Of a stretch of DNA of 64,000 nucleotides, positions 6,938 to 47,535 are shown piece by piece. The notes under the pieces were generated by a model. That model worked only from the letters and a program-made list of their open reading frames with translations. It ran no database searches and was not told the DNA's origin. Within the stretch, counting starts at the first letter, position 1. Every line of letters begins with the position of its first letter. The DNA is from Candidatus Saccharimonadales bacterium (GTDB taxonomy: Bacteria; Patescibacteriota; Saccharimonadia; Saccharimonadales; EFPC-124): contig DATEFB010000025.1 of the NCBI GenBank assembly GCA_035280845.1, positions 740 through 64,739 on the forward strand. Direction: 5' to 3'. Both the position numbers and the translations under genes were made by a program.

Positions 6938-8416
6938 ATGCAAAAAATTCTTTTATATCTTCGTTCGCACTTGGGGTCATACGAACTTATTGCCTTTGCC
7001 TCGGGCTTTGTTTTAATGGCGTACGAAATGGTCGCCTCGCGCATTTTGGCGCCAAGCATCGGCAGCTCAATGTATGTCTGGACAAGTGTTATTGGTACTA
7101 TGATTGCCGCCCTTGCTATTGGTTATGCCGTTGGCGGCTGGCTGGCCGACAAGCGCGTGGCCGCCCAGGACGTAGCGTGGTTGCTACTGCTAAGCGCAAT
7201 CGCCGTTGGTGGCACGCTGTTATTTTATGAACCCATCCTCTTTATAATTAGCGAAGGGGTGACCGACCAGCGTTTACAGGGCATCCTTGCTGCGGTACTG
7301 CTGTTTTTGCCCGCCAGCTTTTTGCTGGGTATGATCAGCCCGTATTTGGCGCGGTTGCGGGTAAAATCCGTGGTCACAACGGGACGGTCGGTGGCTATGC
7401 TGAGTGCCCTCAACTCTATTGGCGGCATTAGCGGGACATTTTTTGCCGGGTTTGTATTCTTTAGCCTTATTGGCTCGCGAGAAACGCTGGCGCTGTTGGT
7501 GATTGCCCTGGTTGCCTGTAGCTGGCTGGTTATGCCCCGCCACCGCCGCACATGGCGGATGGTCGCCACGTTTTGCCTGGCGCTTTTGTTGGTGCTGCAA
7601 TTTGCCGGAAGAGCGCAGGCAGCGGGACTGGTTGCGAACATCGACACGCCAACATCACACTATAGTGTGGTAGAGCTGGGCTACCGCGGGCACAACACCC
7701 GCTTGCTTGTGACTGATCCGCGAGGGTTCCAATCTGGCATTCGAACCGACGGCAATAAGGACCTGGTGTTCGATTACACCCAGCGTTTGGCCGAGGCCGT
7801 GGCACAGGCACCCAAAAAAGACCGTATTGTCATTCTGGGCGGTGGCGTGTTTACACTTCCCGAGTATCTGGCGGTTACATACCCCCAGTCACAAATTGAT
7901 GTAGTCGAGATTGACCCGCAGCTCGAACAGATCGCCAAAGAGTATTTTTACTACCGGCCACAGCCTAACATCCGCGTATTCGCCCAGGATGCCCGGGCGT
8001 TTTTGCATGATACAAAAGACAGCCAGTACGATTTGGTGCTGGTTGATGCCTATAATAATGACTCGGCGATTCCCTTTTCGCTCTCGACACGGGAGTTTAC
8101 TGAAGGGCTTAAGCGCATCCTCACTCCAGACGGCGCGGTACTCGCGAACATTATCGGCAGCGCCAGCGCACCCTGCCTGCCTGCGCTTTCCAGTCTGCAC
8201 GGTTCGTACTTGAGCGCTTTTGCCGAATCGTTTGTGGCGCCGGTTGCCCCACGCATTAATCCGGACATCCGCCAGAATTTGATCGCTGTGTATGCCAATA
8301 ATTCGGTTGACTGGGCAAGGCCGCTTGGCTCCGAACTATACATTCACGCTGGAGCTGCCCAGAAGCTGACCGACAATTACGCGCCGGTCGAATCGCTATG
8401 GCAAACGTGCCACTAG
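6938..8416 (+). CDS. Membrane-fused spermidine-synthase-like methyltransferase-fold protein
   Basis: About 200 aa of predicted TM helices are followed by the SpeE-like motifs IVILGGGVFTLPEYL, VDVVEIDP and DLVLVDAYNN. Confidence 0.7.
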   Translation: MQKILLYLRSHLGSYELIAFASGFVLMAYEMVASRILAPSIGSSMYVWTSVIGTMIAALAIGYAVGGWLADKRVAAQDVAWLLLLSAIAVGGTLLFYEPILFIISEGVTDQRLQGILAAVLLFLPASFLLGMISPYLARLRVKSVVTTGRSVAMLSALNSIGGISGTFFAGFVFFSLIGSRETLALLVIALVACSWLVMPRHRRTWRMVATFCLALLLVLQFAGRAQAAGLVANIDTPTSHYSVVELGYRGHNTRLLVTDPRGFQSGIRTDGNKDLVFDYTQRLAEAVAQAPKKDRIVILGGGVFTLPEYLAVTYPQSQIDVVEIDPQLEQIAKEYFYYRPQPNIRVFAQDARAFLHDTKDSQYDLVLVDAYNNDSAIPFSLSTREFTEGLKRILTPDGAVLANIIGSASAPCLPALSSLHGSYLSAFAESFVAPVAPRINPDIRQNLIAVYANNSVDWARPLGSELYIHAGAAQKLTDNYAPVESLWQTCH

Positions 8417-10137
8417 GCAGCGGCTTGTTGCAGTGCGGTGTAAATCTGGGTGGGCTGTAGTTTTTCGTCCCAGGCCGTGCGTGTTTTAAACGTCGGGTTG
8501 GTGAGGTTGGCGTTGTGCACGTATGGGCCGCCAATTCCCCACATGGTGTAGCCAGAAATGTTTGGGTGCCGGATCGCAAAGCGCAGCATATCGCCAAATT
8601 GCCTGGCTTGTTCGGCGCGGCCTGCGTTTGCGGTAACGTCCATTTCCGAGATGCGCACCTTTACGCCAATCGCTGCCAATTCGTTAACGCGACGTTCCAG
8701 CACCTCGAGGTTGGCACGGTCGCGGGGGCTCTCGAGCACGTGAGCCTGTAAGCCAATGCCATCGAGCCTGATGCCGCGGGATTTAACGTCTTTGGCAATG
8801 GCAAGCAGGGCCTGGAAGCGTTCTTCGTCGGCGGTATTGGCTTTGTCCCAGCCGTATTCGTTCATCCATAGCTCGGCTTGCGGGTCGGTTTGGTGAGCGG
8901 TTTGCAGTGCGATTGGGATATATTCTTTTCCCATGCCGGTGAGCCACGGGCTCAGGCGCATCTGGCCGGAGTAGTTGGCGAGAGGCTCGTTAATAACATC
9001 AACGCCTTTTACGCGGCCTTTGGTGTGGCCCATAACTGCTTTGATGTGGTCGGTCATCACCTGTTTGGCGCGGTCGGCTGGCAATTCCTTTGCCCAGTCA
9101 GGAAGCTCGTTGTGCCAGACCATGGTGTGTAGCCAGACGTCTTTTTTGTGGCGGCCTGCAAAGTCCATAAGCGCATCAAGCTCGCCAAACTCAAACTGGC
9201 CGGGCGCGGGCTGCACAAAGCGCATTTTGCCGGCGTTTTCTGTGGTGAAGTTATCAAATTCGCCCGCCAACAACGATGCGAAGCGGCGGTCGGCCGCAAT
9301 TGGGGCGAGTTTTGTAGCGGTGCCGAAGCCAAATTCTTTAGCACCGGCGACTTTGCGCTCAATGCGGCCAGCCAGGCCGTCGGCGCAGGGCTCGACTTCG
9401 AGGGTCGTGGTGTCGACCACCTCAACAGTGCCGCCATTTAATTCGCGCGCAGTCAGGCTGCCAACGTGCGCTGGTTTTTCTTTGGCGCCAAGTCCCAGCC
9501 ACACTTCGCCGCTGGCAAATACGTCGTCAAAATCATCGCCAACTGCTTGGTCGCCAATGTGTACAGATACGCGCCCATTCAGACGTTGAATAACCAGCTG
9601 CTTTTGGTGGTCACGGTCTGCTAAAGTAAACGGCCGCACAGCAGGCTTGTCGTGCTCGTTGCGCCAAAAGGTAACTTCGCCACCTGTTTCGGTAAGAGTC
9701 ACCCGTACGCCCGACGGAGATTGTACGAACCCATCGTACGAAAGGGTGACACCCTCTTTGGCGTGTAGTGAGAATTCGCCTCCAGCATCCAGCGTTACGT
9801 CTGCGCCCAGTGCAAAATCGCCCTGCACACCAAGCCGTGCGCCATAGACATTCATGGGCACGCCGTCTGTTTCGATTGGGCTTACGGTAAGGTGGCCGCC
9901 TTGCTTGCGCTCAACACCAGGGGTGTGCCAGTTGTAGTTTGTCAGTTCAGCTTCGGGAGAGGCTTCGTGGCGTTCAACGCCTGCCTTGGTGTCGCCGCAA
10001 CCGTCAATTGGCGAGGGGCGTTCGTCTGTATCGCAGCCGGTTGCATAGGCTAGGACGCCAGCGCCAAAACCGGCAAGTGCGGTGCGGCGACGTAGAGGGC
10101 GGTCCCAGAATGAAGGTCGTTCGGTCGGTTCGGTCAT
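8413..10137 (-). CDS. Glycoside hydrolase family 10 (xylanase-type) lipoprotein with an unknown beta-rich N-terminal domain
   Basis: Tat-like RRRTALAGFGAGVLAYATGC signal/lipobox. GH10 motifs TTENAGKMRF, WLHTMVWHNELPDW, VDVINEPL (acid/base), IGLQAHV, ISEMDV (nucleophile). Confidence 0.8.
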   Translation of the reverse strand: MTEPTERPSFWDRPLRRRTALAGFGAGVLAYATGCDTDERPSPIDGCGDTKAGVERHEASPEAELTNYNWHTPGVERKQGGHLTVSPIETDGVPMNVYGARLGVQGDFALGADVTLDAGGEFSLHAKEGVTLSYDGFVQSPSGVRVTLTETGGEVTFWRNEHDKPAVRPFTLADRDHQKQLVIQRLNGRVSVHIGDQAVGDDFDDVFASGEVWLGLGAKEKPAHVGSLTARELNGGTVEVVDTTTLEVEPCADGLAGRIERKVAGAKEFGFGTATKLAPIAADRRFASLLAGEFDNFTTENAGKMRFVQPAPGQFEFGELDALMDFAGRHKKDVWLHTMVWHNELPDWAKELPADRAKQVMTDHIKAVMGHTKGRVKGVDVINEPLANYSGQMRLSPWLTGMGKEYIPIALQTAHQTDPQAELWMNEYGWDKANTADEERFQALLAIAKDVKSRGIRLDGIGLQAHVLESPRDRANLEVLERRVNELAAIGVKVRISEMDVTANAGRAEQARQFGDMLRFAIRHPNISGYTMWGIGGPYVHNANLTNPTFKTRTAWDEKLQPTQIYTALQQAAA

Positions 10138-10297
10138 TGGTTCTCCTCGTGGTGTTTGTAAGTCTTACAACCTTATTATAATTATAGCAAAATTATGTTG
10201 GAGATACAGGTTTACAGGAGGACGTCGGCAAGGTTAAATAGTACTAATGGTTAACGTGCCGCCCGCAACACGGGGCGGCTAATAATATGGAGCCCGT

Positions 10298-11323
10298 ATG
10301 GAAGCCGAACCCACCACAGCAGCATTAACAGATCAACCTCAACCCGAAACCGCCTCCCCCGCTCCTGCCAAGCAAGAAGAAACAGACGTTTTTGCTTGGG
10401 CCAACAACCTGTTTTTGTACAAAGATAAACTTGATGTTGAATTGTTTTTGCTCAATAAGAACAATATTTTGTACCGCAGTAAATATGCCGAGACCCTAAA
10501 CCGTCAGCTTCATCCTTTATTTATTGACAGCATTTTGGAATACGTTATTACCGGCGCAGGCCAGGGCCTTGTTGTACGCGGGTTCGAAGCCGCCGAAAGC
10601 GAAGAAAACGTACTGCAAGTGACCGATGTTGCGAACGTCGAAAAGCTTGTAGAAGCTATGAGCTGGCTGGGCTCACAAGAAAAAGAAATGGAAACCTTCA
10701 ACGAAGAAGACCACGACTTAAAGCGCATGAAGGCAGTTGTTGCCCGCTGCACCCACCCGGACATGCCCGAGCCTTTTTACGTTATTAAGGCACTGTCACA
10801 GGCGACTGTCCTTAAGAATGTTGGCGCGTGGATGATTACTGGCAGTAAGTTCGAGGCCCTTGATGACGGCGCTGCCCTGCGCATCCCTGCCGATAACCAG
10901 CTGCTTGTTATCGGCGGCCAGCTATTTGTGTTTAATCAGAGCAAGCTTGAGCGGCTTTTTGGCTACAACGCAAAAAAGAACGCCATCGCCGAAAAGAAAG
11001 TCAGGCAGATTGAGGCTAACTTCCAGCTGAGCTTCGCCGACGAGCAAACCCTACAGAGCATGGTCAAAGAAAGCAAATCGGTAATTACTAAACTGCAAAA
11101 GCTTGATCCAAGCCAGGTAAAGCAGGAAGATTTGTTGAATCATGCTGAAGAAATGGGTATCGAGCTCATGCAAGACGAAGCAGGCGCCATTATTATTATG
11201 AATGCCGCCGACCTGAGCAAATTTGTGAATCTGTTAAATGACGATTATGTTGAGTCTAACCTGACTGGTCTGCGGTACGAGATTAAGAGCAAGAAGCTCC
11301 TTAAGCCGTCTGAGGAGGATTAG
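10298..11323 (+). CDS. DUF4868/KwaB-like protein (Kiwa defence component B-like), with no KwaA partner
   Basis: Size (341 aa) and remembered family features: LLVIGGQLFVFNQSKLERLFGY and the C-terminal FVNLLNDDYVESNLTGLRYEI. GGAG lies 5 nt upstream of the ATG. The call is from memory only, not from an HMM. Confidence 0.5.
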   Translation: MEAEPTTAALTDQPQPETASPAPAKQEETDVFAWANNLFLYKDKLDVELFLLNKNNILYRSKYAETLNRQLHPLFIDSILEYVITGAGQGLVVRGFEAAESEENVLQVTDVANVEKLVEAMSWLGSQEKEMETFNEEDHDLKRMKAVVARCTHPDMPEPFYVIKALSQATVLKNVGAWMITGSKFEALDDGAALRIPADNQLLVIGGQLFVFNQSKLERLFGYNAKKNAIAEKKVRQIEANFQLSFADEQTLQSMVKESKSVITKLQKLDPSQVKQEDLLNHAEEMGIELMQDEAGAIIIMNAADLSKFVNLLNDDYVESNLTGLRYEIKSKKLLKPSEED

Positions 11324-11756
11324 GCGATTGACCCTCGGTTTGTGCCGGGGCCGTCGGATTTGGCGCAGAGTCATCACTAATAAAATCACGAATCATGCCA
11401 ATGATTTCGTCTAAGCGATATTCGGCCTTCAGAATATATTTTTTAGCGCCTAAGCCAAGCATATTATGAACTTTCTCGGGGCTGGCAGAATTGCTCACAA
11501 CCAACACGGGGATTTTCTCCCACTTCGGATTGTTTTTAATCTCTTGCATGAAGGCTAGGCCATTCATGTCTTTAAGATAATAATCTAGCCAGATCGCGTC
11601 GGGCAGTTCGTCAATATTGTTCAGATAGTCTACTGCCTGTTGCCCGCTCGAACACGATAGAACGTCCATCTCGGAGATTTTCAGTTTTTTTGTAATGGCT
11701 TGAAGCAATAAGACTTCATCTTCTACGACCATGATTGTTGGGTTTTGCTTTGACAT
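11301..11756 (-). CDS. Receiver-only response regulator with a low-complexity Pro/Gln-rich tail
   Basis: IMVVEDEVLL...IWLDYYLKDMNG...VLVVSN...K. The convergent 23-nt overlap with the DUF4868-like gene falls in its low-complexity tail. Confidence 0.85.
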   Translation of the reverse strand: MSKQNPTIMVVEDEVLLLQAITKKLKISEMDVLSCSSGQQAVDYLNNIDELPDAIWLDYYLKDMNGLAFMQEIKNNPKWEKIPVLVVSNSASPEKVHNMLGLGAKKYILKAEYRLDEIIGMIRDFISDDSAPNPTAPAQTEGQSPNPPQTA

Positions 11757-11775
11757 ATATTTAGTGTAGCATCCT

Positions 11776-12135
11776 CTATGCTTTAGTGTTGACCGTCTGT
11801 TGGTTGGCTTCGTGACGTATAAGTTCTGTAAGAAGTGACTCGGAGATACGCTTGCGCAATTCTTCTTTGGTGAAGGTGCGAAGAGGTTCTTTGGTCGTCA
11901 GGTACTGCTCCAGTTGCAAGTAAACGCCTAGTAAGCGTTTGTCGTCCTGTGGTGATGGCCGTTCGCTGGGCTTGAGGGTTGCGGTGATCTCGCGGACGGT
12001 ATCGAGGATTGGCCCGATCTCGAGCTGGTTTGAAGCAAGTCCGGATGCATACGTTACAAGGTCGAGTGGCGTGTTGGCGCCACTTTCTGCGGAATGCTGC
12101 TGTTTACTGCCTAGGAGTGAGCTAAAGAAAGACAT
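11776..12135 (-). CDS. Hypothetical protein
   Basis: ORF in an operon with neighbours. I chose the ATG at 12135 (AGGAG 10 nt upstream) because the longer ORF-track start would overlap the upstream gene. Confidence 0.5.
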   Translation of the reverse strand: MSFFSSLLGSKQQHSAESGANTPLDLVTYASGLASNQLEIGPILDTVREITATLKPSERPSPQDDKRLLGVYLQLEQYLTTKEPLRTFTKEELRKRISESLLTELIRHEANQQTVNTKA

Positions 12136-12139
12136 TGGC

Positions 12140-12940
12140 CTAATACTCCTTCGTTTTGTAAAACATATAGCCTGCTTTAACGTAAATCGAGGCAGTAGCA
12201 AGGGTGAGGATATCGGTAGTGATGTCTAGCCTGTTGCCGTCGCCAAGGAAAAAAATACCAAACAGGACCGTGCCGATAATAGTTGCACTTCCGCTCAGCC
12301 CAAGTGCCAGCCATGCTGCAGCGTGGACATAGTGCGCACCGAGCTGGCGGCGAGCTTTGAGCATGATGAGCGCGGCGGTTAGGTAGAAGAAGCCCGTCCA
12401 AAGCAGAACGCTGTTTGAGACGTCAAAAGCGACTTCGGTCTGACTAATCGCTGCATGCGGCAGGAACGACGAAAGTGTAATGAGTACCACTACGGCTGGC
12501 AGTACCACAGAAGCTTTGGCCAGGATTGTTTGTACACCGACGAGCTTTGCAAAGCCGCGGGCGCCAATGTAAACTCCTAGGCCTGCAACAAGGAACGGTA
12601 GCGTAATAAGGCCGCTGACGGCCCATGCAGAATTCATGAGGCCCAACGCGTCGAGTAGCGGTAATTGCAGTGTGCCAAGCGCGGTTAGTACGATAGAAAA
12701 CGCGATTATGCCATACGCGAATCGTAGCTCTGCCTTGTAGGCCCCTAAGCTCATGACAAACAACACAGCTGCGCTCATATGGAGCACTGCCGCTACGGTG
12801 GATCCGGCAAGTGCTAGGTGAAAGTCGACTGCCGCACCTTGCCAAGTGGAGGGTAGCGGCAACATAAGCGCGCCTATTATTGCTGCGGTCGACACAATAA
12901 TTGTCCCTAAGAGTACTTTGATTGCCGGACTCATATCCAT
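12140..12940 (-). CDS. Polytopic membrane protein (about 8 predicted TM helices), unknown function
   Basis: Continuous run of hydrophobic segments, sitting between the HK and a hypothetical gene in the same strand cluster. Confidence 0.6.
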   Translation of the reverse strand: MDMSPAIKVLLGTIIVSTAAIIGALMLPLPSTWQGAAVDFHLALAGSTVAAVLHMSAAVLFVMSLGAYKAELRFAYGIIAFSIVLTALGTLQLPLLDALGLMNSAWAVSGLITLPFLVAGLGVYIGARGFAKLVGVQTILAKASVVLPAVVVLITLSSFLPHAAISQTEVAFDVSNSVLLWTGFFYLTAALIMLKARRQLGAHYVHAAAWLALGLSGSATIIGTVLFGIFFLGDGNRLDITTDILTLATASIYVKAGYMFYKTKEY

Positions 12941-12976
12941 CCCTCATTTACTAGTTGCGTTTCATCCAATGTGATT

Positions 12977-14896
12977 TTAGGCATCGAGTGTCACCTCTCC
13001 TTCTTTGGGTTTCATGCCACTCAGGGGGATGGTGAACCAGAAGCTGGTACCCTTGTTTTCTTCGCTTTCGAACCATATCTTGCCACCAGAAGATTCCACA
13101 ATGGCCTTAATAAGGTAGAGACCGAGTCCGGTGCCGTCGGTTTCGACTTTCGCAACATTTTCGGCGCGGAAAAACTTCTGGAAGATTCGTGCTTGCTGCG
13201 CTTTCGGAATACCATATCCGTTGTCGGTGACCTGAGAAATCACGTCATCTCCCTTTTTGGAGACAAATACCGATATCTCACCCTTTTTCGGCGTATACTT
13301 TACAGCGTTTGTCAGCAGGTTCAAATATACTTGACCAATCAGTCGTGGGTCGAGGTTTATTTTTGGCATGTCCGGGTGCACGCTAATAACTAGTGTTTGC
13401 TCACGTTCTTCGGTTTTAGCTTTCAGGTCGTTCACAATGCCAGTAATGAGTTCTTGAAGGTCGGTCGGGTGTGGGTCAACGATGATGCGACCTGACTCAA
13501 TGCGCGAGATGTTAAGGAGCGAGTTTACCAAATCAACCATGCGGTCGGTCGAATCTGCAATATTTTTTGTAAAATCCATCTGTTCCGGCGTGAGTTTGCC
13601 GGCGTCGCCGTTCATCAGCATTTCGCTGAACCATTTAATAGCCGAAAGTGGCGTGCGTAATTGGTGCGAAGCCAGCGAGATGAACTCGGTCTTCATGCGG
13701 TCCACCTCCTTTTCTTTAGTGACATCTCGGAGAATCAGGATGGCGCCGCCTACTTTGTTCTCCAACTTAACTGGGCTGGAAGCGATGTTAAGAAGCACTG
13801 TGCGCTTATCGGATGTGTGGTATCCGTACGCCTGATTGATTGCTTCGCCGCTCTGCAAGGTGAGGCTGCTTGGTAGCTCGCCTGGGGCAAGTAGCTTTCC
13901 TCCCTGACTGAACAGCGTGATAGCGCCAGCGAGGCTTTTGCCGGTGACAGCTTGTTTGTTTTCAATATGTAACATTTCTGCGGCAACTGAGTTTATGAGC
14001 ACAATATTGCCCTTGGCATCCAGTGCGACCATGCCTTCGTTCATGCTTTCAAGCAGGATCTCGTCGCGCTCTTTTTCGAGAGCCAGACGTGAGTACGACG
14101 CCCGCAAGCTGGCAGACATTTGGTTGAACGAGCGGGCTAAATCGCCCAACTCATCTTGTGATTTAATTTCTATCTGGCTGCTAAAATCGCCGCCAGCAAT
14201 CCGTGCCGAACCTACTCTCAGCTTTTTAATGTTGCGAGCGACGCCAATAGAAATTACTAAACCTACGCCGATCGCGAAAATGCTGCCCGCACTTGCCGTA
14301 AGGAGTGCCGCAAGAGCGATCTGATCGACTTGCGCGTCTGCCCTAGCGTCATCGGTGCGTATGGTTTGCAGGTCCTGCTCGATATTTTCGGTAAGTGTTG
14401 CTTGGAGCGTGGTCTCTGCCGTGTGAAGCTCTGCCTCTTTTGCTGCTATCTGGCTGGCCTGCGCCTGTTGCTCCTTAAGGGCGATGAGTTCGAAAACGGC
14501 ATTGACCGTACGTTCCTTCGCCGCGCTAATCGTTTTGAATCCTGCCAATATTTCATTTTTTTCATGACCACGGCCTCGATTGACGAGGATAACGTAGTCT
14601 TTCTCTTGATCGGTCAATTTATCCAGATGAGCAAGCAACGCATTCTTGCGTGTTTCTGCTTCGGCTCCTCTGGTAAGGCCTTGGTAGGCAGTGGTTTCTT
14701 TATCAATCCTAACGGCCGTGACGCGCATTGACTGCAATGTAACAAGACGTGGTAAATGATCATCCATAATATCCGAGAATGAATCGTGAATGCGGCCTAT
14801 GGCCTGTACGTTAAAATAGCTCAGCATAATAACCAGTATCGCGGTTATAGCGAAGGCGCCAATAAGTTTTATTTTTATTGATTTGTTCTTGAACAC
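12977..14896 (-). CDS. Sensor histidine kinase (TM, extracytoplasmic helical region, HAMP, PAS, HisKA, HATPase_c)
   Basis: HAMP-like RIAGGDFSSQIEIKSQDELGDLARSFNQM. H-box FISLASHQLRTP, N-box LLTNAVKYT, G-boxes DNGYGI and GTGLGLYLIKAIV. Confidence 0.9.
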   Translation of the reverse strand: MFKNKSIKIKLIGAFAITAILVIMLSYFNVQAIGRIHDSFSDIMDDHLPRLVTLQSMRVTAVRIDKETTAYQGLTRGAEAETRKNALLAHLDKLTDQEKDYVILVNRGRGHEKNEILAGFKTISAAKERTVNAVFELIALKEQQAQASQIAAKEAELHTAETTLQATLTENIEQDLQTIRTDDARADAQVDQIALAALLTASAGSIFAIGVGLVISIGVARNIKKLRVGSARIAGGDFSSQIEIKSQDELGDLARSFNQMSASLRASYSRLALEKERDEILLESMNEGMVALDAKGNIVLINSVAAEMLHIENKQAVTGKSLAGAITLFSQGGKLLAPGELPSSLTLQSGEAINQAYGYHTSDKRTVLLNIASSPVKLENKVGGAILILRDVTKEKEVDRMKTEFISLASHQLRTPLSAIKWFSEMLMNGDAGKLTPEQMDFTKNIADSTDRMVDLVNSLLNISRIESGRIIVDPHPTDLQELITGIVNDLKAKTEEREQTLVISVHPDMPKINLDPRLIGQVYLNLLTNAVKYTPKKGEISVFVSKKGDDVISQVTDNGYGIPKAQQARIFQKFFRAENVAKVETDGTGLGLYLIKAIVESSGGKIWFESEENKGTSFWFTIPLSGMKPKEGEVTLDA

Positions 14897-14899
14897 TTT

Positions 14900-16135
14900 T
14901 TACTCCTGCCAGACTTTCAAAACTTGATTGCCCACAGCAGATCCGAGTGTCGCACCTGCGGCGTTATCTGTCGGAAAATGAATGCCCCCAGCTGAACGCG
15001 AGTCGCTCGCTTCTGTGGCGAGCCGGCTCCACTCCTGCTGGTTGTCGGGTAAGTATTTATTTAGTACGGTCGCTGCGGCCCACGATATGCTAGCGTGACC
15101 GGCGGGATAGCTGGGGTGGTTGGGGGTAGGCATAATCGTCACAATAGAACTGTCGAGCATATTCGGGCGCTTGTATTGGTAGAAATATTTAGAATCAAAC
15201 ACAGCAATGACAGCGTCGGCCATTGAGATTGTAGTGAGCGCCCTGACTTCGAGGTACGTATCAAGAGGTACTGACTTTTCTTGCATGTAGTCGGTGGCTA
15301 AGGCTAGCCAAATGCCGGGTGGCGTGCGCGTGCCGGGCCCGCCTGCCCACTTAATAACAATGGCCTTTTGGTCATTCGTGGCGCTGGCGACCCTTTGTTT
15401 AAGCGCTGTTAATTGCTGCTGTAGTTCGGCAGAGTTTGCAGCAATCGGTGGTGCTGACCTAAACTGGCTGGCCGAGGTCAGGAACCATGGCTTAAATGAT
15501 GGCGCGCTCAACCCGACTTGCATTGCCGGTCCGTTCCAATACTGAGCCCCAGGCTTAAGCGCTGTTGGCTTGGTTTGGGCGTTGTCTTCTGTGATGCGCG
15601 CTTTAACCTTCGCCATAACGGCATCGGATAGGGCTGTGGCATAGGCATCATTGTTGGTTGTGACTAGGCTACCGCAGCTGTCAGGGTAAAATTCGCATAA
15701 CACATTTTTAGAGATTAGTTCTACGCTTCCGGCAAATGTTTTGTGCGCCTTATAAGAAAGTGCTGCGGCGTCCAGTTGTGCGACACTCAGATAGGCGTAG
15801 ACCTTAGAGGCATCAACATCGATGGTGCCGTGATGGCCAATGAGCTCGTAGGTCTTGTCTTCCCATTTTTGTACTTCGCTTATAGTAATCTCCCCAGTTG
15901 GCGTCAGGCCACGCAGCGTATCGGCCACCTGTTGGTCGTAGGTAAAGAAGGTGCGTATCGATGACTGCACCTCTTTTGGCTTAAAAAAGAGCAAGTACAC
16001 GGCAACGCTTGCTGCCAGCGTGATACCGGCAGCAACGGCCAGCAACGCAATCGTCCGGCCTGTAGGTTTTTTGTGTTCTGGCTGAGTGACGTCTGGTGGT
16101 GGGCCAGGTTGGGTAATAATATTGTCTGGTTGCAT
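14900..16135 (-). CDS. Membrane-anchored PAP2-superfamily protein (acid phosphatase / vanadium-haloperoxidase-like)
   Basis: N-terminal TM anchor. PAP2 signature K-x6-RP (KYFYQYKRP), P(A/S)GH (YPAGHAS), SR-x5-H-x3-D (SRSAGGIHFPTD). Confidence 0.75.
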   Translation of the reverse strand: MQPDNIITQPGPPPDVTQPEHKKPTGRTIALLAVAAGITLAASVAVYLLFFKPKEVQSSIRTFFTYDQQVADTLRGLTPTGEITISEVQKWEDKTYELIGHHGTIDVDASKVYAYLSVAQLDAAALSYKAHKTFAGSVELISKNVLCEFYPDSCGSLVTTNNDAYATALSDAVMAKVKARITEDNAQTKPTALKPGAQYWNGPAMQVGLSAPSFKPWFLTSASQFRSAPPIAANSAELQQQLTALKQRVASATNDQKAIVIKWAGGPGTRTPPGIWLALATDYMQEKSVPLDTYLEVRALTTISMADAVIAVFDSKYFYQYKRPNMLDSSIVTIMPTPNHPSYPAGHASISWAAATVLNKYLPDNQQEWSRLATEASDSRSAGGIHFPTDNAAGATLGSAVGNQVLKVWQE

Positions 16136-17811
16136 TATGCCACCTCCTCTTTTTTTGACATGATGGCTAGGGGCAAGAGTACAGAAAACGTACTTCCCTT
16201 GCCCTCTTCAGATTCGAAACGTATTCTGCCGCCAACATATTCGGTGATTGTCTTTACGATATACAGCCCGAGCCCGGTGCCGTCGGTGTCCTGGTGCTTG
16301 ACGTTTGTGGCGCGGAATAACTTGGTGAATATTTTTGATTGCTCATCAATTGGTACGCCCATGCCGGTATCGGCTACTTCTATAAGCAGATTGTCTCCAG
16401 ACGAGTCGTTAAGCTTCTCGCCACTCTTTTTAATGGTAATTGTCACTGTGCCGTTTTTGGGCGTGTATTTAAATGCATTTGTAATCAAATTCTGCAGGAT
16501 TGTCTTCATGACGTTCGGATCCAACGATTCGGTGGGCAATGCGGGGTCGTAGTGCTCTTTGATATGCAGAATCTTGTCAGCCGGAAGTGTATCTAGTAGT
16601 TGCTCGAGTATTTGCCGGCATAATCTTGGCAAGTCCACAGGCTCAGGGTGTATCGGAAGGCTGCCAAGTTCCAGGCTTGAGGTTGTCAGCATTGCGTCTA
16701 CTAATGCCGCCATGCGCTTGTTGCTGTGATAGATTTGTTGGATATAATCGGCCTGCTCGGTTTTTAGCTTGCCGGCATCACCATGCATAAGTAACTCGCT
16801 CATCCAGGCAATTGCCGAGATTGGCGTGCGCAGTTGGTGTGACGCCAGCGTGACAAACTCGCTTTTGGCCCTGTCGATGGCACTTTCTTCGGTTATGTCA
16901 CGGAACGTGCCAATAGCTCCGCGCACTTTGCCGTCAACTACAATTGCTTTAGACGTAATATCGACAGCCAAGGCACTTTTATCATGACGCAAGTAGGTAG
17001 CTGGCCGTTTTGTGGATCTTTTCTCGTTTAGGGCGAGCCACATTGGGCGTTTGGTGTTTTTAACAGGCTTTCCCGCCGCATCAACCATTGGTATCGCATC
17101 AAAAAAGTTTTTACCAACGAGTTGGCCAGATTTCCAGCCGAGCAGATTTTCTCCGGCATGGCTAGCTAGGACGATCTTGCCACTGGCACTAAGTGCTACG
17201 ACCCCTTCGTCGATATTTTCGATAATCATCTCTGCCTTCAGTTTTTCTTCTACGGAAGCTTCCTGGCTTTTTAAGGTCTCGACGGCCATATTCTCGCGTG
17301 ACTGTTGGTAAGCGTAGATGCCAATAGTCACCACTAATAAGGTAATGAGCATTTGGCGGAGAGTAATAAACGAATAAGGAAGGGCCACGAGCGAGCGTTC
17401 TTGTAGCACCATGAAGATGAGGACGGCGCCAAGCAGGGCCGCCATCCACAGCAAGCCACCTTTTTTGCCTGCCAGGAAAAAGGCACTCACAGGGAACAGG
17501 AACAGCCAAAAGATACCCGTTCCTGCAGTTCCTCCAGTGGCGATCATGACGATTAGAAATGTCAGGATGCAAAGCAGTAACATATTGCGAGCAATCGCGA
17601 CATTATGGGTCACGTACAGCCCCACCATGATAAGGACTGCCACGAGTCCACCTATCACCTCGAGGATGCCAAGCCATGCATTGCCCTCGAGGATTTGTAG
17701 CGATCCAAAGCCAACCAGTGACAAGAAGGATAGAAGCGAGTAAATGTAGATGACGCGCGTTTGTTCAGTAACAAGTCTGTCGCCGGATGTGTGTTTAGGC
17801 ATACCGAACAT
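16135..17811 (-). CDS. Sensor histidine kinase (5-6 N-terminal TM helices, PAS, HisKA, HATPase_c)
   Basis: H-box FVTLASHQLRTP, N-box LITNAFKYT, G-boxes DTGMGV and GTGLGLYIVKTI. There is a 1-nt overlap with the PAP2 gene start. Confidence 0.9.
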   Translation of the reverse strand: MFGMPKHTSGDRLVTEQTRVIYIYSLLSFLSLVGFGSLQILEGNAWLGILEVIGGLVAVLIMVGLYVTHNVAIARNMLLLCILTFLIVMIATGGTAGTGIFWLFLFPVSAFFLAGKKGGLLWMAALLGAVLIFMVLQERSLVALPYSFITLRQMLITLLVVTIGIYAYQQSRENMAVETLKSQEASVEEKLKAEMIIENIDEGVVALSASGKIVLASHAGENLLGWKSGQLVGKNFFDAIPMVDAAGKPVKNTKRPMWLALNEKRSTKRPATYLRHDKSALAVDITSKAIVVDGKVRGAIGTFRDITEESAIDRAKSEFVTLASHQLRTPISAIAWMSELLMHGDAGKLKTEQADYIQQIYHSNKRMAALVDAMLTTSSLELGSLPIHPEPVDLPRLCRQILEQLLDTLPADKILHIKEHYDPALPTESLDPNVMKTILQNLITNAFKYTPKNGTVTITIKKSGEKLNDSSGDNLLIEVADTGMGVPIDEQSKIFTKLFRATNVKHQDTDGTGLGLYIVKTITEYVGGRIRFESEEGKGSTFSVLLPLAIMSKKEEVA

Positions 17812-25801: not shown

Positions 25802-26902
25802 TTAGCGTTGTGCGCGTGCCTTCTCGGGAACGAACGCCGGGCTGTTCAGTGCCGCAGCGAGGATCTGGTGGTGGTCTGTGGTGACGATGCCGTCCGCCCA
25901 AAACCGCGACGGAGCAGCGTTGAGCACCGGTTCGCAGAGGTCGATCTCGCCCCAGCGCCCGATGTCCGCGGGCAGGTACGGGACGGCCTCGATGCCGGTG
26001 TGGGCGATCGCATACCGCCCAACGTGGTCGCGCGGAACAAAACTCAGGTGGTGAGTCCGCTCGCCCGCTTGTGCCTTCAGGAGCAGGGACATGAGTTCGG
26101 CCGGGTGGAAGTCGTGGACATGCGCGGGCATGTTGCGCGGGCCCCACATGTGGGGCCACGCTGCTTCGTACATGTCAGCGATTTCTTCGAACGTCGAGGT
26201 TGTGGCTAGCGCGCGCAGCTCGTCTGCCGAATTGAACGCGAATGCCGGCAGCTTGGTGATGTCCGTCGGGACCATGTATACCGGTCCCGGGTAGTCGAAC
26301 AGCACACTGTGCGCTGCGCCCGCATCGCAGGTGGCGTTGAACTGGCGCCGTCCGCCAGCCAACACGTTGACGCCATTGGTGCCGAACATGCCGAGCTGTG
26401 CCGTGAGGATGCCGAACTTGCCATGCAGCAGAGGCTGCCGCATGAAGTACGCGACATCGGTCAAAGGCCCACCGCACACGAAGTGCAACGTGCCCGGGAT
26501 CTTCGAGAGCATGATGACAGCATCGTCGATCCCCCCTGCCAGCTGGTGGCCGGCGTGGGCGTCGTCGTAGATGTCAGTGACACGCTCATGGATATGCATG
26601 TAGTGCGGCACCGTGGTGTACGGTGCCCGGTTCCCCATGAAGACCGGGATGGTCTCGCGGTCGTGCCGTACCAGAATTCCCTTCGCGTGGAGGGCGTTGT
26701 CTCTGGTGACGGCCGACGTGGCGTATGGGTTGAATGCAAAGCTGGACACGCCACGTTCGGCACTGACGGGCCGGCCGGTCATGATGACTGCGACCACATT
26801 CATGCCGAAGTGCGCGCTCGTCGCCGCCAGGATGGCAGCGAAGTTGTCGGGGTCAGGGCCGTCAACGACGACCACAACATTGTGAGGTGCAGAAAACTCC
26901 AC
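25802..26902 (-). CDS. Nucleoside hydrolase (IUNH-fold)-like protein, GC-rich
   Basis: N-terminal acidic cluster VVVVDGPDPDNFAAILAA, GGPLTDVAYF (compare GPLTN), and GGRRQFNATCDAGAAHSVLF (compare GN..AEFN...DPEAA..VF). GTG start with GGAGG 7 nt upstream. Confidence 0.6.
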   Translation of the reverse strand: MEFSAPHNVVVVVDGPDPDNFAAILAATSAHFGMNVVAVIMTGRPVSAERGVSSFAFNPYATSAVTRDNALHAKGILVRHDRETIPVFMGNRAPYTTVPHYMHIHERVTDIYDDAHAGHQLAGGIDDAVIMLSKIPGTLHFVCGGPLTDVAYFMRQPLLHGKFGILTAQLGMFGTNGVNVLAGGRRQFNATCDAGAAHSVLFDYPGPVYMVPTDITKLPAFAFNSADELRALATTSTFEEIADMYEAAWPHMWGPRNMPAHVHDFHPAELMSLLLKAQAGERTHHLSFVPRDHVGRYAIAHTGIEAVPYLPADIGRWGEIDLCEPVLNAAPSRFWADGIVTTDHHQILAAALNSPAFVPEKARAQR

Positions 26903-46317: not shown

Positions 46318-47535
46318 ATGAACAATTCTAATTTTAAGCCGCGCCGTCGGCCTGTTGGCGGTAGCCGTTTTGGTGGCCAGAGCCGTCCTCGTTACGGTAA
46401 CTCTGCCCCACGTAAGGGTATTGGTAAATACATCCACCCGGACAAGTTTGTAAACAAGGCCAAGCCTGCTGCTGACGTTATTCCTTACGAATCAACCCAC
46501 ACATTTGCTGACTTTGGTTTTGCCCCTGCCCTGCAGCGCAACATTGACGCTAAAGGCTATGTGCATCCTACTCCAATCCAGGACGAAGCTATTAAGCCAG
46601 TCATGGAAGGGAAAGACCTTATTGGCCTTGCCAACACCGGTACTGGTAAGACGGCTGCATTCTTGCTGCCGATTCTGTCGCGCATCGTGAACGACCCAGA
46701 CAGCGCTCGTGTGCTTGTTATGGCTCCAACCCGCGAACTTGCTGTACAGATTGACGAAGAATTCCGTGCCTTTGCCAAAGGCCTTAACCTGTACAGTGCC
46801 CTTTGTGTAGGCGGTGTAAACATTGGCCCACAGATTAAGCAAATTAAGCGCGGCCCGCACCTTGTTATTGGTACGCCCGGCCGTCTTAAAGACCTGGTTC
46901 AGCAGAAGGCTTTGCGCCTTGGTGCTGCCAACGTGCTTGTTTTGGACGAAGCCGACCGCATGCTCGACATGGGCTTCATTAAGGACATTCAGTTCTTGAT
47001 TGGCCAGCTCGACACCAACCGCCAGTCTTTGTGCTTTAGCGCAACGATTACTCCCGAAATCCGTACTCTTATTGATGGCATGCTGAAAGAGCCTGTAACT
47101 GTTTCTGTCCGCACGAGCGAGACCAGCGAGCATGTCGAACAGGACGTGATTCACGCTACCTCAAAAGAACACAAGATTGAAATCCTTGAAGACTTGCTGA
47201 AGAAGCCTGACTTCGAGAAGGTCATTGTGTTCGGCCAAACTAAACACGGCGTACAGCGCCTGGCAGAAAAGCTTAGCAGCGCTGGTATTCCTAGCGAAGC
47301 TATTCATGGCAACAAGAGCCAGGGCCAACGCCAACGTGCCTTGAACGACTTTAAGACGAACCGTGTCCGCGTACTGGTTGCTACCGATGTTGCAGCACGC
47401 GGTTTGGACATTCCAAACGTTAGCCACGTGATTAACTTTGACCAACCTGCAACCTACGAAGAATACGTGCACCGCATTGGCCGTACTGGCCGTGCCGGTA
47501 AGCGCGGCAGCGCCCTGACCTTTATTTCAAAATAA
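46318..47535 (+). CDS. DEAD-box ATP-dependent RNA helicase
   Basis: Q motif, ANTGTGKT, PTRELA, VLDEADRMLDMGF, SAT, HRIGRTGRAG. N-terminal Arg/Gly-rich extension. Confidence 0.95.
   Translation: MNNSNFKPRRRPVGGSRFGGQSRPRYGNSAPRKGIGKYIHPDKFVNKAKPAADVIPYESTHTFADFGFAPALQRNIDAKGYVHPTPIQDEAIKPVMEGKDLIGLANTGTGKTAAFLLPILSRIVNDPDSARVLVMAPTRELAVQIDEEFRAFAKGLNLYSALCVGGVNIGPQIKQIKRGPHLVIGTPGRLKDLVQQKALRLGAANVLVLDEADRMLDMGFIKDIQFLIGQLDTNRQSLCFSATITPEIRTLIDGMLKEPVTVSVRTSETSEHVEQDVIHATSKEHKIEILEDLLKKPDFEKVIVFGQTKHGVQRLAEKLSSAGIPSEAIHGNKSQGQRQRALNDFKTNRVRVLVATDVAARGLDIPNVSHVINFDQPATYEEYVHRIGRTGRAGKRGSALTFISK

Follow-up and report, generated by a model that had tools for sequence, protein, structure and literature searches.

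A conserved KwaA-less branch of the KwaB family in Saccharibacteria and their phages

The gene at positions 10298 to 11323 of a 64-kb stretch of DNA from a Candidatus Saccharimonadales bacterium (contig DATEFB010000025.1; the whole stretch is hereafter called the window) encodes a 341-residue protein of the KwaB family, known from the Kiwa anti-phage system, and this protein is a member of a Saccharibacteria clade that does without KwaA. KwaA is missing from the KwaA-less branch in every context examined. The branch has two kinds of members, i.e. a chromosomal gene found across Saccharibacteria species, whose product starts with an acidic tail, and tail-less copies in phage replication and recombination modules. 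Our preferred reading, which we put forward tentatively, is that the window gene encodes an autonomous, KwaA-independent KwaB paralogue, a putative soluble DNA-binding dimer that would act conditionally on incoming or replicating foreign DNA, and in which the acidic tail may stand in for KwaA as the safeguard of the cell's own DNA.

Kiwa ranks with the most abundant defence systems, and in the mechanism published for it KwaA is required both as the sensor and to keep KwaB away from host DNA. Tetramers of KwaA anchor dimers of KwaB at the membrane, and KwaB binds single-stranded and double-stranded DNA non-specifically via a basic DUF4868 channel and stalls phage replication; the phage-encoded DNA mimic Gam inhibits KwaB (PMC11785009). 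In E. coli Kiwa, defence is lost on deleting either gene (PMC11785009). Canonical Kiwa is patchy in its distribution and driven by horizontal transfer, with 53% of the loci on mobile genetic elements (MGEs), and Kiwa phylogenies suggest that kwaA and kwaB have occasionally been transferred independently; that study took in complete operons only (PMC11785009). An earlier version of this preprint is cited, in a passage of PMC11514479, for KwaB acting independently of KwaA. No paper describing KwaA-less KwaB clades was found in our literature search. The KwaB-like domain call itself is already in public annotation, as a 100% identical protein has been deposited from a Saccharimonadales metagenome-assembled genome (MAG) under the name "KwaB-like domain-containing". 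An exact look-up of the window protein returned no record. The gene and the parts of its product are as follows:

10298..11323, + strand: coding sequence of the KwaB-family protein, 341 residues; open reading frame (ORF) with an ATG start, the coordinates taking in the stop codon
10298..10384, + strand: acidic disordered tail, residues 1-29, MEAEPTTAALTDQPQPETASPAPAKQEET, net charge -5
10385..10936, + strand: N-terminal alpha/beta domain, residues ~30-213, alternating strands and helices in the AlphaFold2 model; it corresponds to residues 1-185 of E. coli KwaB, the Rossmann-like domain there (domain limits from PMC11785009)
10937..11320, + strand: C-terminal DUF4868 domain, residues ~214-341 (Pfam match at residues 169-323), putative DNA-binding domain

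The initial annotation of this DNA had called the protein KwaB-like on the strength of two motifs, and profile searches bear this out. The protein matches Pfam PF16162 (KwaB/DUF4868) at 50.9 bits, well over the gathering score of 26.3 (E 2.4e-13), and eight PADLOC KwaB models, the best of which, PDLC00233, gives 63.9 bits over model positions 17-317 of 320; the same model gives a genuine KwaA-linked KwaB 56.6 bits. Both motifs quoted at the time were found, LLVIGGQLFVFNQSKLERLFGY at residues 202-223 and NLLNDDYVESNLTGLRY at residues 311-327, and they align in register with DLFSIGEDFYIKNHKTLETQMKF and KLMSDDYLQSDLTKIIY of E. coli KwaB. Furthermore, the C-terminal DUF4868 domain contains the conserved motif NDDYxES..TG.RYE. 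Identity to E. coli KwaB is ~17-18%. The latter is weakly matched (E 0.12) by a profile of the clade only, and a family-wide profile matches its residues 20-316 at E 9e-20; hmmalign places E. coli residues 20-186 on residues 47-214 of the window protein. The AlphaFold2 model (predicted local distance difference test, pLDDT, 74.8; predicted template modelling score, pTM, 0.68) is disordered over residues 1-25 (pLDDT <50), and a Foldseek search of the PDB with it returned the KwaB entries 9MTN, 9MRX and 9NYU only (E 3e-11 to 8e-10, probability 1.00, ~320 columns), the next match having an E value of 0.46. The window protein is a full-length two-domain KwaB-family protein.

The initial annotation had also noted that the gene lacks a kwaA partner, and wider searches agree. 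The kwaA gene of Kiwa encodes a protein of ~180-200 residues with four transmembrane (TM) helices and stands in the same operon as kwaB; no such gene adjoins the window gene or its orthologues at 83 loci. In the window, neither the neighbours nor the multi-TM ORFs gave a PADLOC KwaA match at E≤1, and a KwaA hidden Markov model (HMM) derived from three genuine KwaAs matched none of the six-frame ORFs of at least 70 residues in it. The PADLOC negative is meaningful, because a real KwaA (locus L092), taken as a positive control, was detected by 13 PADLOC KwaA models, down to 1.4e-28. The HMM likewise found no KwaA in any six-frame ORF of loci L001-L123. Within four genes on either side of the orthologue, 83 loci have 78 multi-TM ORFs, of which none is KwaA-like; no small multi-TM gene recurs beside the orthologue in 84 loci, and no KwaA was seen beside the phage-borne copies in the ±8 kb examined.

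The chromosomal gene is widespread. A scan of one genome per GTDB species gave at least 475 loci, and the best 80 of the 475, which include complete chromosomes of 1.0 and 1.45 Mb, are all from Saccharibacteria except for a few with labels that are probably mis-binned. Among the 2385 clusters homologous to the window protein, each of the best 120 is at least 56% identical to it, and the named ones among these are almost all Saccharimonadales/Saccharibacteria. It is 56-83% identical to the clade members, the orthologue data being drawn from MAGs. As a side observation, L010, L025 and L029 hold typical Saccharibacteria orthologues on contigs labelled Magnetospirillaceae, Nevskiaceae and Limnocylindrales, labels that are probably binning errors rather than signs of horizontal transfer.

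The neighbourhood of the gene is conserved over much of the clade. A PIF1-like helicase gene is found on the same strand in 52 of 84 loci, and directly adjacent in 15; a class II aminoacyl-tRNA synthetase (aaRS) gene is present in 36 and an RNase H gene in 35 of the 84, and NYN, RadC and RecO genes recur too. This synteny decays, and it is missing in the window and its nearest relatives, where the gene is accompanied by an SpeE-like gene upstream and by DsbD, MFS, G6PD and DHPS genes downstream. Between the window and L003, the KwaB-like protein is the most conserved of eight syntenic gene products with 82% identity (G6PD 80%, DHPS 77%, MFS 72%, SpeE-like 71%, DsbD 70%); between the window and L006 it is 83% identical, and the other syntenic genes 71 and 62%. 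The nonsynonymous divergence (dN) is 0.10-0.19 with saturated synonymous divergence (dS), and dN/dS is 0.07 in the sole measurable pair; 78 columns are invariant across 18 orthologues. On these sequence comparisons, the KwaA-less gene is under strong purifying selection. Mean identity in the clade is 60-62% for the folded core, compared with 64% for the aaRS, 55% for PIF1 and 76% for RNase H, which indicates a housekeeping-like rate of evolution. Loci that differ more in the core also tend to differ more in the linked genes (Pearson 0.24-0.53, Mantel p 0.001), and this modest correlation is consistent with mainly vertical inheritance. With its at least 475 species loci, conserved synteny and housekeeping-like rate, the gene does not have the patchy, MGE-associated distribution that is typical of Kiwa.

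An exhaustive profile search of the wider family gave 393 representatives at E≤1e-3, and the sampled contexts fall into three kinds, i.e. KwaA-less genes in phage genomes, a second chromosomal subtype, and canonical operons in which an overlapping KwaA gene is present. The canonical operons are those of P0164, which adjoins a resolvase gene, and of P0138 and P0179, which are found in Saccharibacteria genomes directly 3' of the same aaRS in a block of response regulator, RecO and aaRS genes. Locus L244 holds both a KwaA-KwaB operon and, 5.3 kb downstream, a KwaA-less orthologue of the clade, the two KwaB copies being 27% identical. The KwaA-less copy shares 71-73% identity with clade members; it bears the acidic tail, and the TTTACA-N24-TAAAAT geometry is found upstream of it. 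L244 is a genuine Saccharibacterium, because its aaRS is 84% identical to that of L074. The KwaA of this lineage has only three relatives among 5.8 billion proteins. The segment between the two forms (L244:6943-11625) encodes a serine hydrolase, a peptidase S51, a zeta-toxin-like kinase and ORFs without assignment, and may be a small variable island within conserved synteny.

In a neighbour-joining tree with 200 bootstrap replicates, the Saccharibacteria clade, window protein included, was recovered in 200/200, the phage representative P0126 was its sister in 151/200, and the KwaA-less set was split from E. coli KwaB, P0164, P0168 and P0179 in 188/200. The KwaA-linked saccharibacterial P0138 was basal to the KwaA-less radiation. 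The simplest history is that a resident kwaB was duplicated, lost its dependence on KwaA and was exchanged with phages in either direction. The second chromosomal subtype is represented by P0124 (338 residues; L247:2932-7606), and is followed by Peptidase_S8, GH1 and CofD/YvcK genes. Its arrangement mirrors SEML1_0265-0267 of the oral species Southlakia epibionticum, and it does not group with the environmental chromosomal clade in the tree; the chromosomal forms may thus not be monophyletic relative to the phage copies.

The phage-borne relatives, all of which came from IMG/VR and assemblies, have the following neighbours. P0126 adjoins an FtsK-PDDEXK fusion gene; P0136 stands between RecT and FtsK-PDDEXK genes, with DnaJ, methyltransferase and endolysin genes near; P0154 comes after TerS, TerL and HNH genes, with RusA and a portal/adaptor gene near, and its cluster includes a Nanosynbacter TM7 genome; P0183 is found with RecT, HNH and MazG genes; and further phage-borne copies stand beside SSB or replication initiator genes. 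A phage protein fragment in BFVD, A0A8S5QWK1, is 38% identical (template modelling score, TM-score, 0.81 normalised to the target), and phrog_11123, of unknown function, is weakly matched by the window protein and by P0154. A tblastn search of the INPHARED phages gave no match for the window protein or P0183, and a viral scan with P0126 found nothing.

Several side observations concern these phage loci. The fusion proteins that flank phage KwaB-like genes are 695-715 residues long and join a PD-(D/E)xK nuclease to an FtsK/SpoIIIE translocase (L088:5686-7773, L090:9369-11516). In L090, the order is RecT, KwaB-like gene and nuclease-translocase fusion, which may form a recombination module. A 109-residue HNH endonuclease (L087:325-654; L103-L123) shares a 90% cluster with the 321-residue KwaB-like P0154. 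The HNH gene is the immediate upstream neighbour of the KwaB-like gene in phage loci, and a gene call that fused these two neighbours has probably brought both into the P0154 cluster. The HNH sequence also occurs on Saccharibacteria contigs of up to 890 kb, which suggests that phages or prophages with HNH and KwaB-like genes infect Saccharibacteria.

The acidic tail sets the chromosomal form apart from its relatives. It precedes the conserved D[IV]FxWANN motif and varies in sequence and length among orthologues, yet it is net negative in 78 of 80 of them, the start codons that set the tail lengths being uncertain; with conservative start codons it is net negative in 45/45, with a median length of 38 residues and a median charge of -7. 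Phage-type and KwaA-linked relatives are without it, and the phage-borne copies have only ~8 residues before the conserved DIFxWAN motif.

The gene also has an upstream element of its own. In the clade, this element is bipartite, consisting of AATTTTACAGCAG and then TAGAAT at a fixed spacing, 24 nt after TTTACA. The box TTTACAG[CG]A is found upstream of the orthologue in 51 of 83 loci, and elsewhere it has 19 matches in 965 kb on both strands, about the level expected by chance; both halves together were seen in front of the orthologue 46 times and at a single other place. Since the two halves of an ordinary -35/-10 pair lie closer together than 24 nt, the box may be the site of a regulator. 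When metagenomes were scanned for the promoter box, no regulon came to light, and most matches were due to chance: 4 of 80 had the correct -10 spacing, and three of those four belong to KwaB-like genes. The elements read upstream of the window gene are the following:

10211..10219, + strand: degenerate copy of the clade box, TTTACAGGA (consensus AATTTTACAGCAG)
10236..10254, + strand: AAATAGTACTAATGGTTAA box of the GCTAATG type, from the upstream alignment of the window with L003, L006, L007 and L008; it recurs in L011
10258..10279, + strand: G+C-rich hairpin with a 7-bp stem (GCCGCCC at 10258-10264, 8-nt loop, GGGCGGC at 10273-10279)
10289..10292, + strand: Shine-Dalgarno-like GGAG, 5 nt 5' of the ATG, read from the sequence

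The strict bipartite pattern (TTTACAGCAG-N20-TAGAAT) is unmatched in the window, where only the degenerate TTTACAGGA is found; in place of the strict element, the window subclade shares the GCTAATG box, which may contain a -10 region, and the hairpin. The hairpin, pointed out in the initial annotation, is real. Its position is kept in the closest orthologues with compensatory stems, i.e. in L003 (CCGCCC/GGGCGG), L006 (ATCGCC/GGCGAT), L007, L008 and L011, and, standing just 5' of the ribosome-binding site, it is probably a stem-loop of the 5' untranslated region (UTR). It lies in a 61-nt segment whose predicted fold is no more stable than those of shuffled sequences (z -1.16). A terminator is ruled out because no T-run follows the stem. 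As for the start of the message, in 15 of 45 loci (including L053, L054, L057, L060, L061, L064, L065, L067, L068, L074-L076, L079 and L085) no more than 12 nt separate the -10-like hexamer from the start codon, which points to leaderless mRNAs there; other subclades, that of the window included, have a longer 5' UTR.

We now consider what the protein may do. On the reading that we tentatively prefer, it would form a dimer like KwaB and bind DNA without sequence specificity through its DUF4868 domain. We infer DNA binding from the residues changed in the published DNA-binding triple mutant (3-mut), two of which are kept basic while the third maps beside an invariant lysine. In the hmmalign mapping, which is uncertain at the residue level at 17% identity, R142 and R167 of E. 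coli KwaB correspond to K173 and R195, and K187 and R233 map beside the invariant K216 and K265; the DNA-contact positions N134 and D169 are not conserved. The KwaA-contact residues R21, R35, Y157 and P100/N101/Q103 are not conserved either (mapped positions K62, K184 and E128/K129/M131), although these positions vary among KwaA-linked KwaBs too and hence carry no information. The protein would be soluble in the cytoplasm, neither tethered nor gated at the membrane by KwaA, and the acidic tail may restrain its binding to the cell's own DNA in the manner of a built-in DNA mimic, as Gam of phages acts on KwaB. Its job would be conditional: to bind incoming or replicating foreign DNA, such as phage, plasmid or, in naturally competent cells, transforming DNA, and to stall its replication. 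A conditional role is supported by transposon sequencing (Tn-seq) of S. epibionticum ML1, where, in co-culture without phage, insertions in the DUF4868 gene SEML1_0265 kept stable counts and the gene was classed as non-essential (PMC10633639 supplement). A more far-reaching and doubtful version of this reading is that a whole class of the candidate phyla radiation (CPR) has turned the fold of a defence effector into a core protein of its chromosome, in steps of duplication, KwaA independence and tail gain. A saccharibacterial kwaB would have been duplicated at the same locus, lost its dependence on the membrane sensor and gained the acidic DNA-mimic tail as a regulator; it would now serve naturally competent, nucleotide-scavenging epibionts as a standing cytoplasmic DNA gatekeeper, with a role comparable to that of xenogeneic silencers or DNA-end binders, and the phages of these bacteria would use tail-less copies inside their recombination modules.

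A number of points weigh against the preferred reading. Deletion of kwaA ends the defence by E. coli Kiwa, so that KwaB alone is not generally sufficient (PMC11785009). Near-universal, vertically inherited and slowly evolving genes are atypical for defence; the synteny with RNase H, PIF1, RecO and RadC would be explained just as well by a role in DNA transactions of the cell itself, and the phage copies beside RecT, SSB and replication initiators by a role in those of the phage. The structural match has a TM-score of 0.44-0.52 with a high root-mean-square deviation and was made with a monomer model, in which the domain orientation may differ from that in the E. coli KwaB structures. Four of the six published DNA-contact positions are not exactly conserved, and the folded core is acidic overall (isoelectric point ~5). 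The tree was built by neighbour-joining only, and the loci were covered to ±6 kb around each orthologue, so that an unlinked partner could lie beyond. Dimerisation and autoinhibition by the tail are, like DNA binding, suggested by comparison with KwaB and Gam.

The main rival of the preferred reading, in our judgement rather unlikely, is that the protein is a housekeeping accessory for the cell's own DNA, involved in replication-fork handling, recombination or repair, or nucleoid organisation, maybe together with the nearby PIF1-type helicase and RNase HI, and that the phage copies do the same job in phage recombination and replication modules. This would account for the conserved synteny with PIF1, RNase H, aaRS, RadC and RecO, which extends to S. 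epibionticum, where SEML1_0265 adjoins RNase HI and a PIF1-type helicase (PMC10633639 supplement), for the housekeeping-like rate and near-universal presence, for the conserved gene-specific promoter, and for the RecT, FtsK-PDDEXK fusion, SSB, replication initiator and RusA genes around the phage copies. It fits less well with the Tn-seq insertions in S. epibionticum being without fitness cost, although the PIF1-type helicase is likewise non-essential there (PMC10633639 supplement). Nor is there an obligate linkage to PIF1 and RNase H, because the synteny decays and is missing in the window and its nearest relatives; moreover, no regulon shares the promoter motif, and the sole characterised homologue is a defence effector. 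A defence role for the window gene we infer from homology only. The initial annotation, which had spoken of a defence gene, is upheld as to the homology to KwaB, whereas the distribution is the opposite of the patchy, horizontally spread canonical Kiwa. Its suggestion of an orphan KwaB working alone also holds in part: working alone is favoured by the comparative data, but the gene is not a stray orphan, because it belongs to a conserved KwaA-less branch with at least 475 loci, a housekeeping-like rate, its own upstream element and, in L244, coexistence with a canonical operon. That the gene is the decaying or functionless leftover of a Kiwa operon, which the missing kwaA might bring to mind, is effectively excluded by the conservation data, i.e. 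the intact frame, the strong purifying selection, the 78 invariant columns in 18 orthologues and the conserved promoter.

Two further explanations would supply the protein with a partner. It is improbable that a non-homologous sensor, such as the adjacent operon of response regulator, histidine kinase and 7-TM protein, replaces KwaA, as the initial annotation had contemplated in its alternative of a different membrane partner. The gene does overlap convergently, by 23 nt, with the REC-only response regulator gene of the operon encoding the histidine kinase, the 141-residue protein and the 7-TM protein, and the relative L001 has a histidine kinase gene directly downstream. However, only syntenic housekeeping families recur across 84 loci, L003, L006, L007 and L008 have DsbD, DHPS or MFS genes where the window has the response regulator/histidine kinase block, the convergent orientation rules out an operon, and the 7-TM protein is without a Pfam or PADLOC match. 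This operon was rejected as a partner since it is not kept beside the gene in relatives; the response regulator, whose block is specific to the window genome, and the GH10 neighbour are not conserved partners. It is very improbable that the protein is the effector of a canonical Kiwa whose kwaA lies unlinked elsewhere in the genome. The 64 kb in hand are a part of that genome, genuine KwaA does occur in some Saccharibacteria, and independent transfer of kwaA and kwaB has been suggested by the Kiwa phylogenies; yet no kwaA was found in the 64 kb or within ±6 kb in the 83 orthologue loci, the KwaA of Saccharibacteria is very rare (three relatives) against a KwaA-less gene in at least 475 species, the KwaA gene of L244 overlaps a kwaB that belongs to it and shares 27% identity with the KwaA-less copy, and phage genomes carry the gene with no KwaA in the ±8 kb examined.

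The surroundings of the window gene are as initially described. On the 5' side lies the GH10 gene at 8413..10137 (- strand; Pfam E 4.9e-65), and on the 3' side the REC-only response regulator gene at 11301..11756 (- strand), the convergent overlap being 11301-11323, so that both neighbours are on the opposite strand; the 160-bp gap upstream (10138-10297) holds no credible ORF. The overlap is supplied by the Pro/Gln-rich low-complexity tail of the response regulator. Between the response regulator and histidine kinase genes, ORFs of 141 and 266 residues (11776-12940, - strand), the latter with seven predicted TM helices, overlap each other by 62 nt; both are without a Pfam or PADLOC match. The GH10 gene and the ~15.6-kb block of response regulator, histidine kinase and pilus genes are peculiar to the window genome and are not found in its nearest relatives. 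Compared with L003, the closest syntenic relative, the GH10 gene (8413-10137) stands between the SpeE-like and KwaB-like genes, and the block 11301-26900, with the response regulator, the 141-residue and 7-TM ORFs, histidine kinases and type IV pilus genes, stands between the KwaB-like gene and DsbD; the gene order of the window is a derived arrangement. The window has a G+C content of 53% and no tRNA or Rfam match. PADLOC matches to BrxHI, DpdF, Cas3-like, DrmD and PsyrT all come from one generic DEAD-box helicase ORF (46318-47535, + strand), and are therefore no sign of a defence system. Two weak SduA (DUF4263) PADLOC matches in the window (best E 1.5e-9) were not located among the 44 ORFs scanned singly.

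A large and strongly conserved KwaA-less branch, apparently of mainly vertical inheritance and also carried by phages, means that proteins with the KwaB fold can have another mode of action and of control than the published one. To list such "KwaB-like" genes among orphan defence genes would give a wrong picture of the defences of CPR bacteria. The presence of both forms at the one locus L244 offers a natural comparison for the divergence of a defence effector and a core-like DNA-binding protein. The question is directly testable, because genetic work is possible in S. epibionticum, which can do without SEML1_0265, and because phages acting on cultivated Saccharibacteria have recently been described (PMC13578794).

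The window protein can be compared with four known systems. Like KwaB of E. coli O55:H7 (9MTN, 9NYU, 9MRX; PMC11785009), it has an N-terminal Rossmann-like and a C-terminal DUF4868 domain; the C-terminal DDYxxSxLT motif is common to the two, and the R142/R167 positions would be basic in both on the residue mapping, which is uncertain at 17% identity. They differ in that E. coli KwaB is encoded in an operon with kwaA, whereas the window gene is without kwaA and has its own conserved promoter; in that the acidic disordered N-terminal tail is a feature of the window protein; and in that the window branch is lineage-wide with a housekeeping-like rate, while Kiwa is patchy and MGE-borne. The saccharibacterial KwaA-linked KwaBs (P0138 in L244/L245 and P0179 in L246) come from the same lineage and the same block of response regulator, RecO and class II aaRS genes, and in the tree P0138 comes closer than any other KwaA-linked protein, branching at the base of the KwaA-less clade. 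In contrast to the window protein, to which they are 33% identical (27% to the co-resident KwaA-less copy), they are preceded by an overlapping KwaA of 179-183 residues, lack the acidic tail and are very rare. The stand-alone DUF4868 proteins of phages (phrog_11123; P0126, P0136, P0154, P0183; A0A8S5QWK1) are KwaA-less too and belong to the same branch, but they are tail-less and have RecT, FtsK-PDDEXK, SSB, replication initiator, HNH and terminase genes as neighbours. Finally, the split KwaB variants (PMC11785009) are likewise an architectural variant of the family, and show that the two domains are separable; they stay in an operon with KwaA, whereas the window protein is unsplit and its KwaA is missing.

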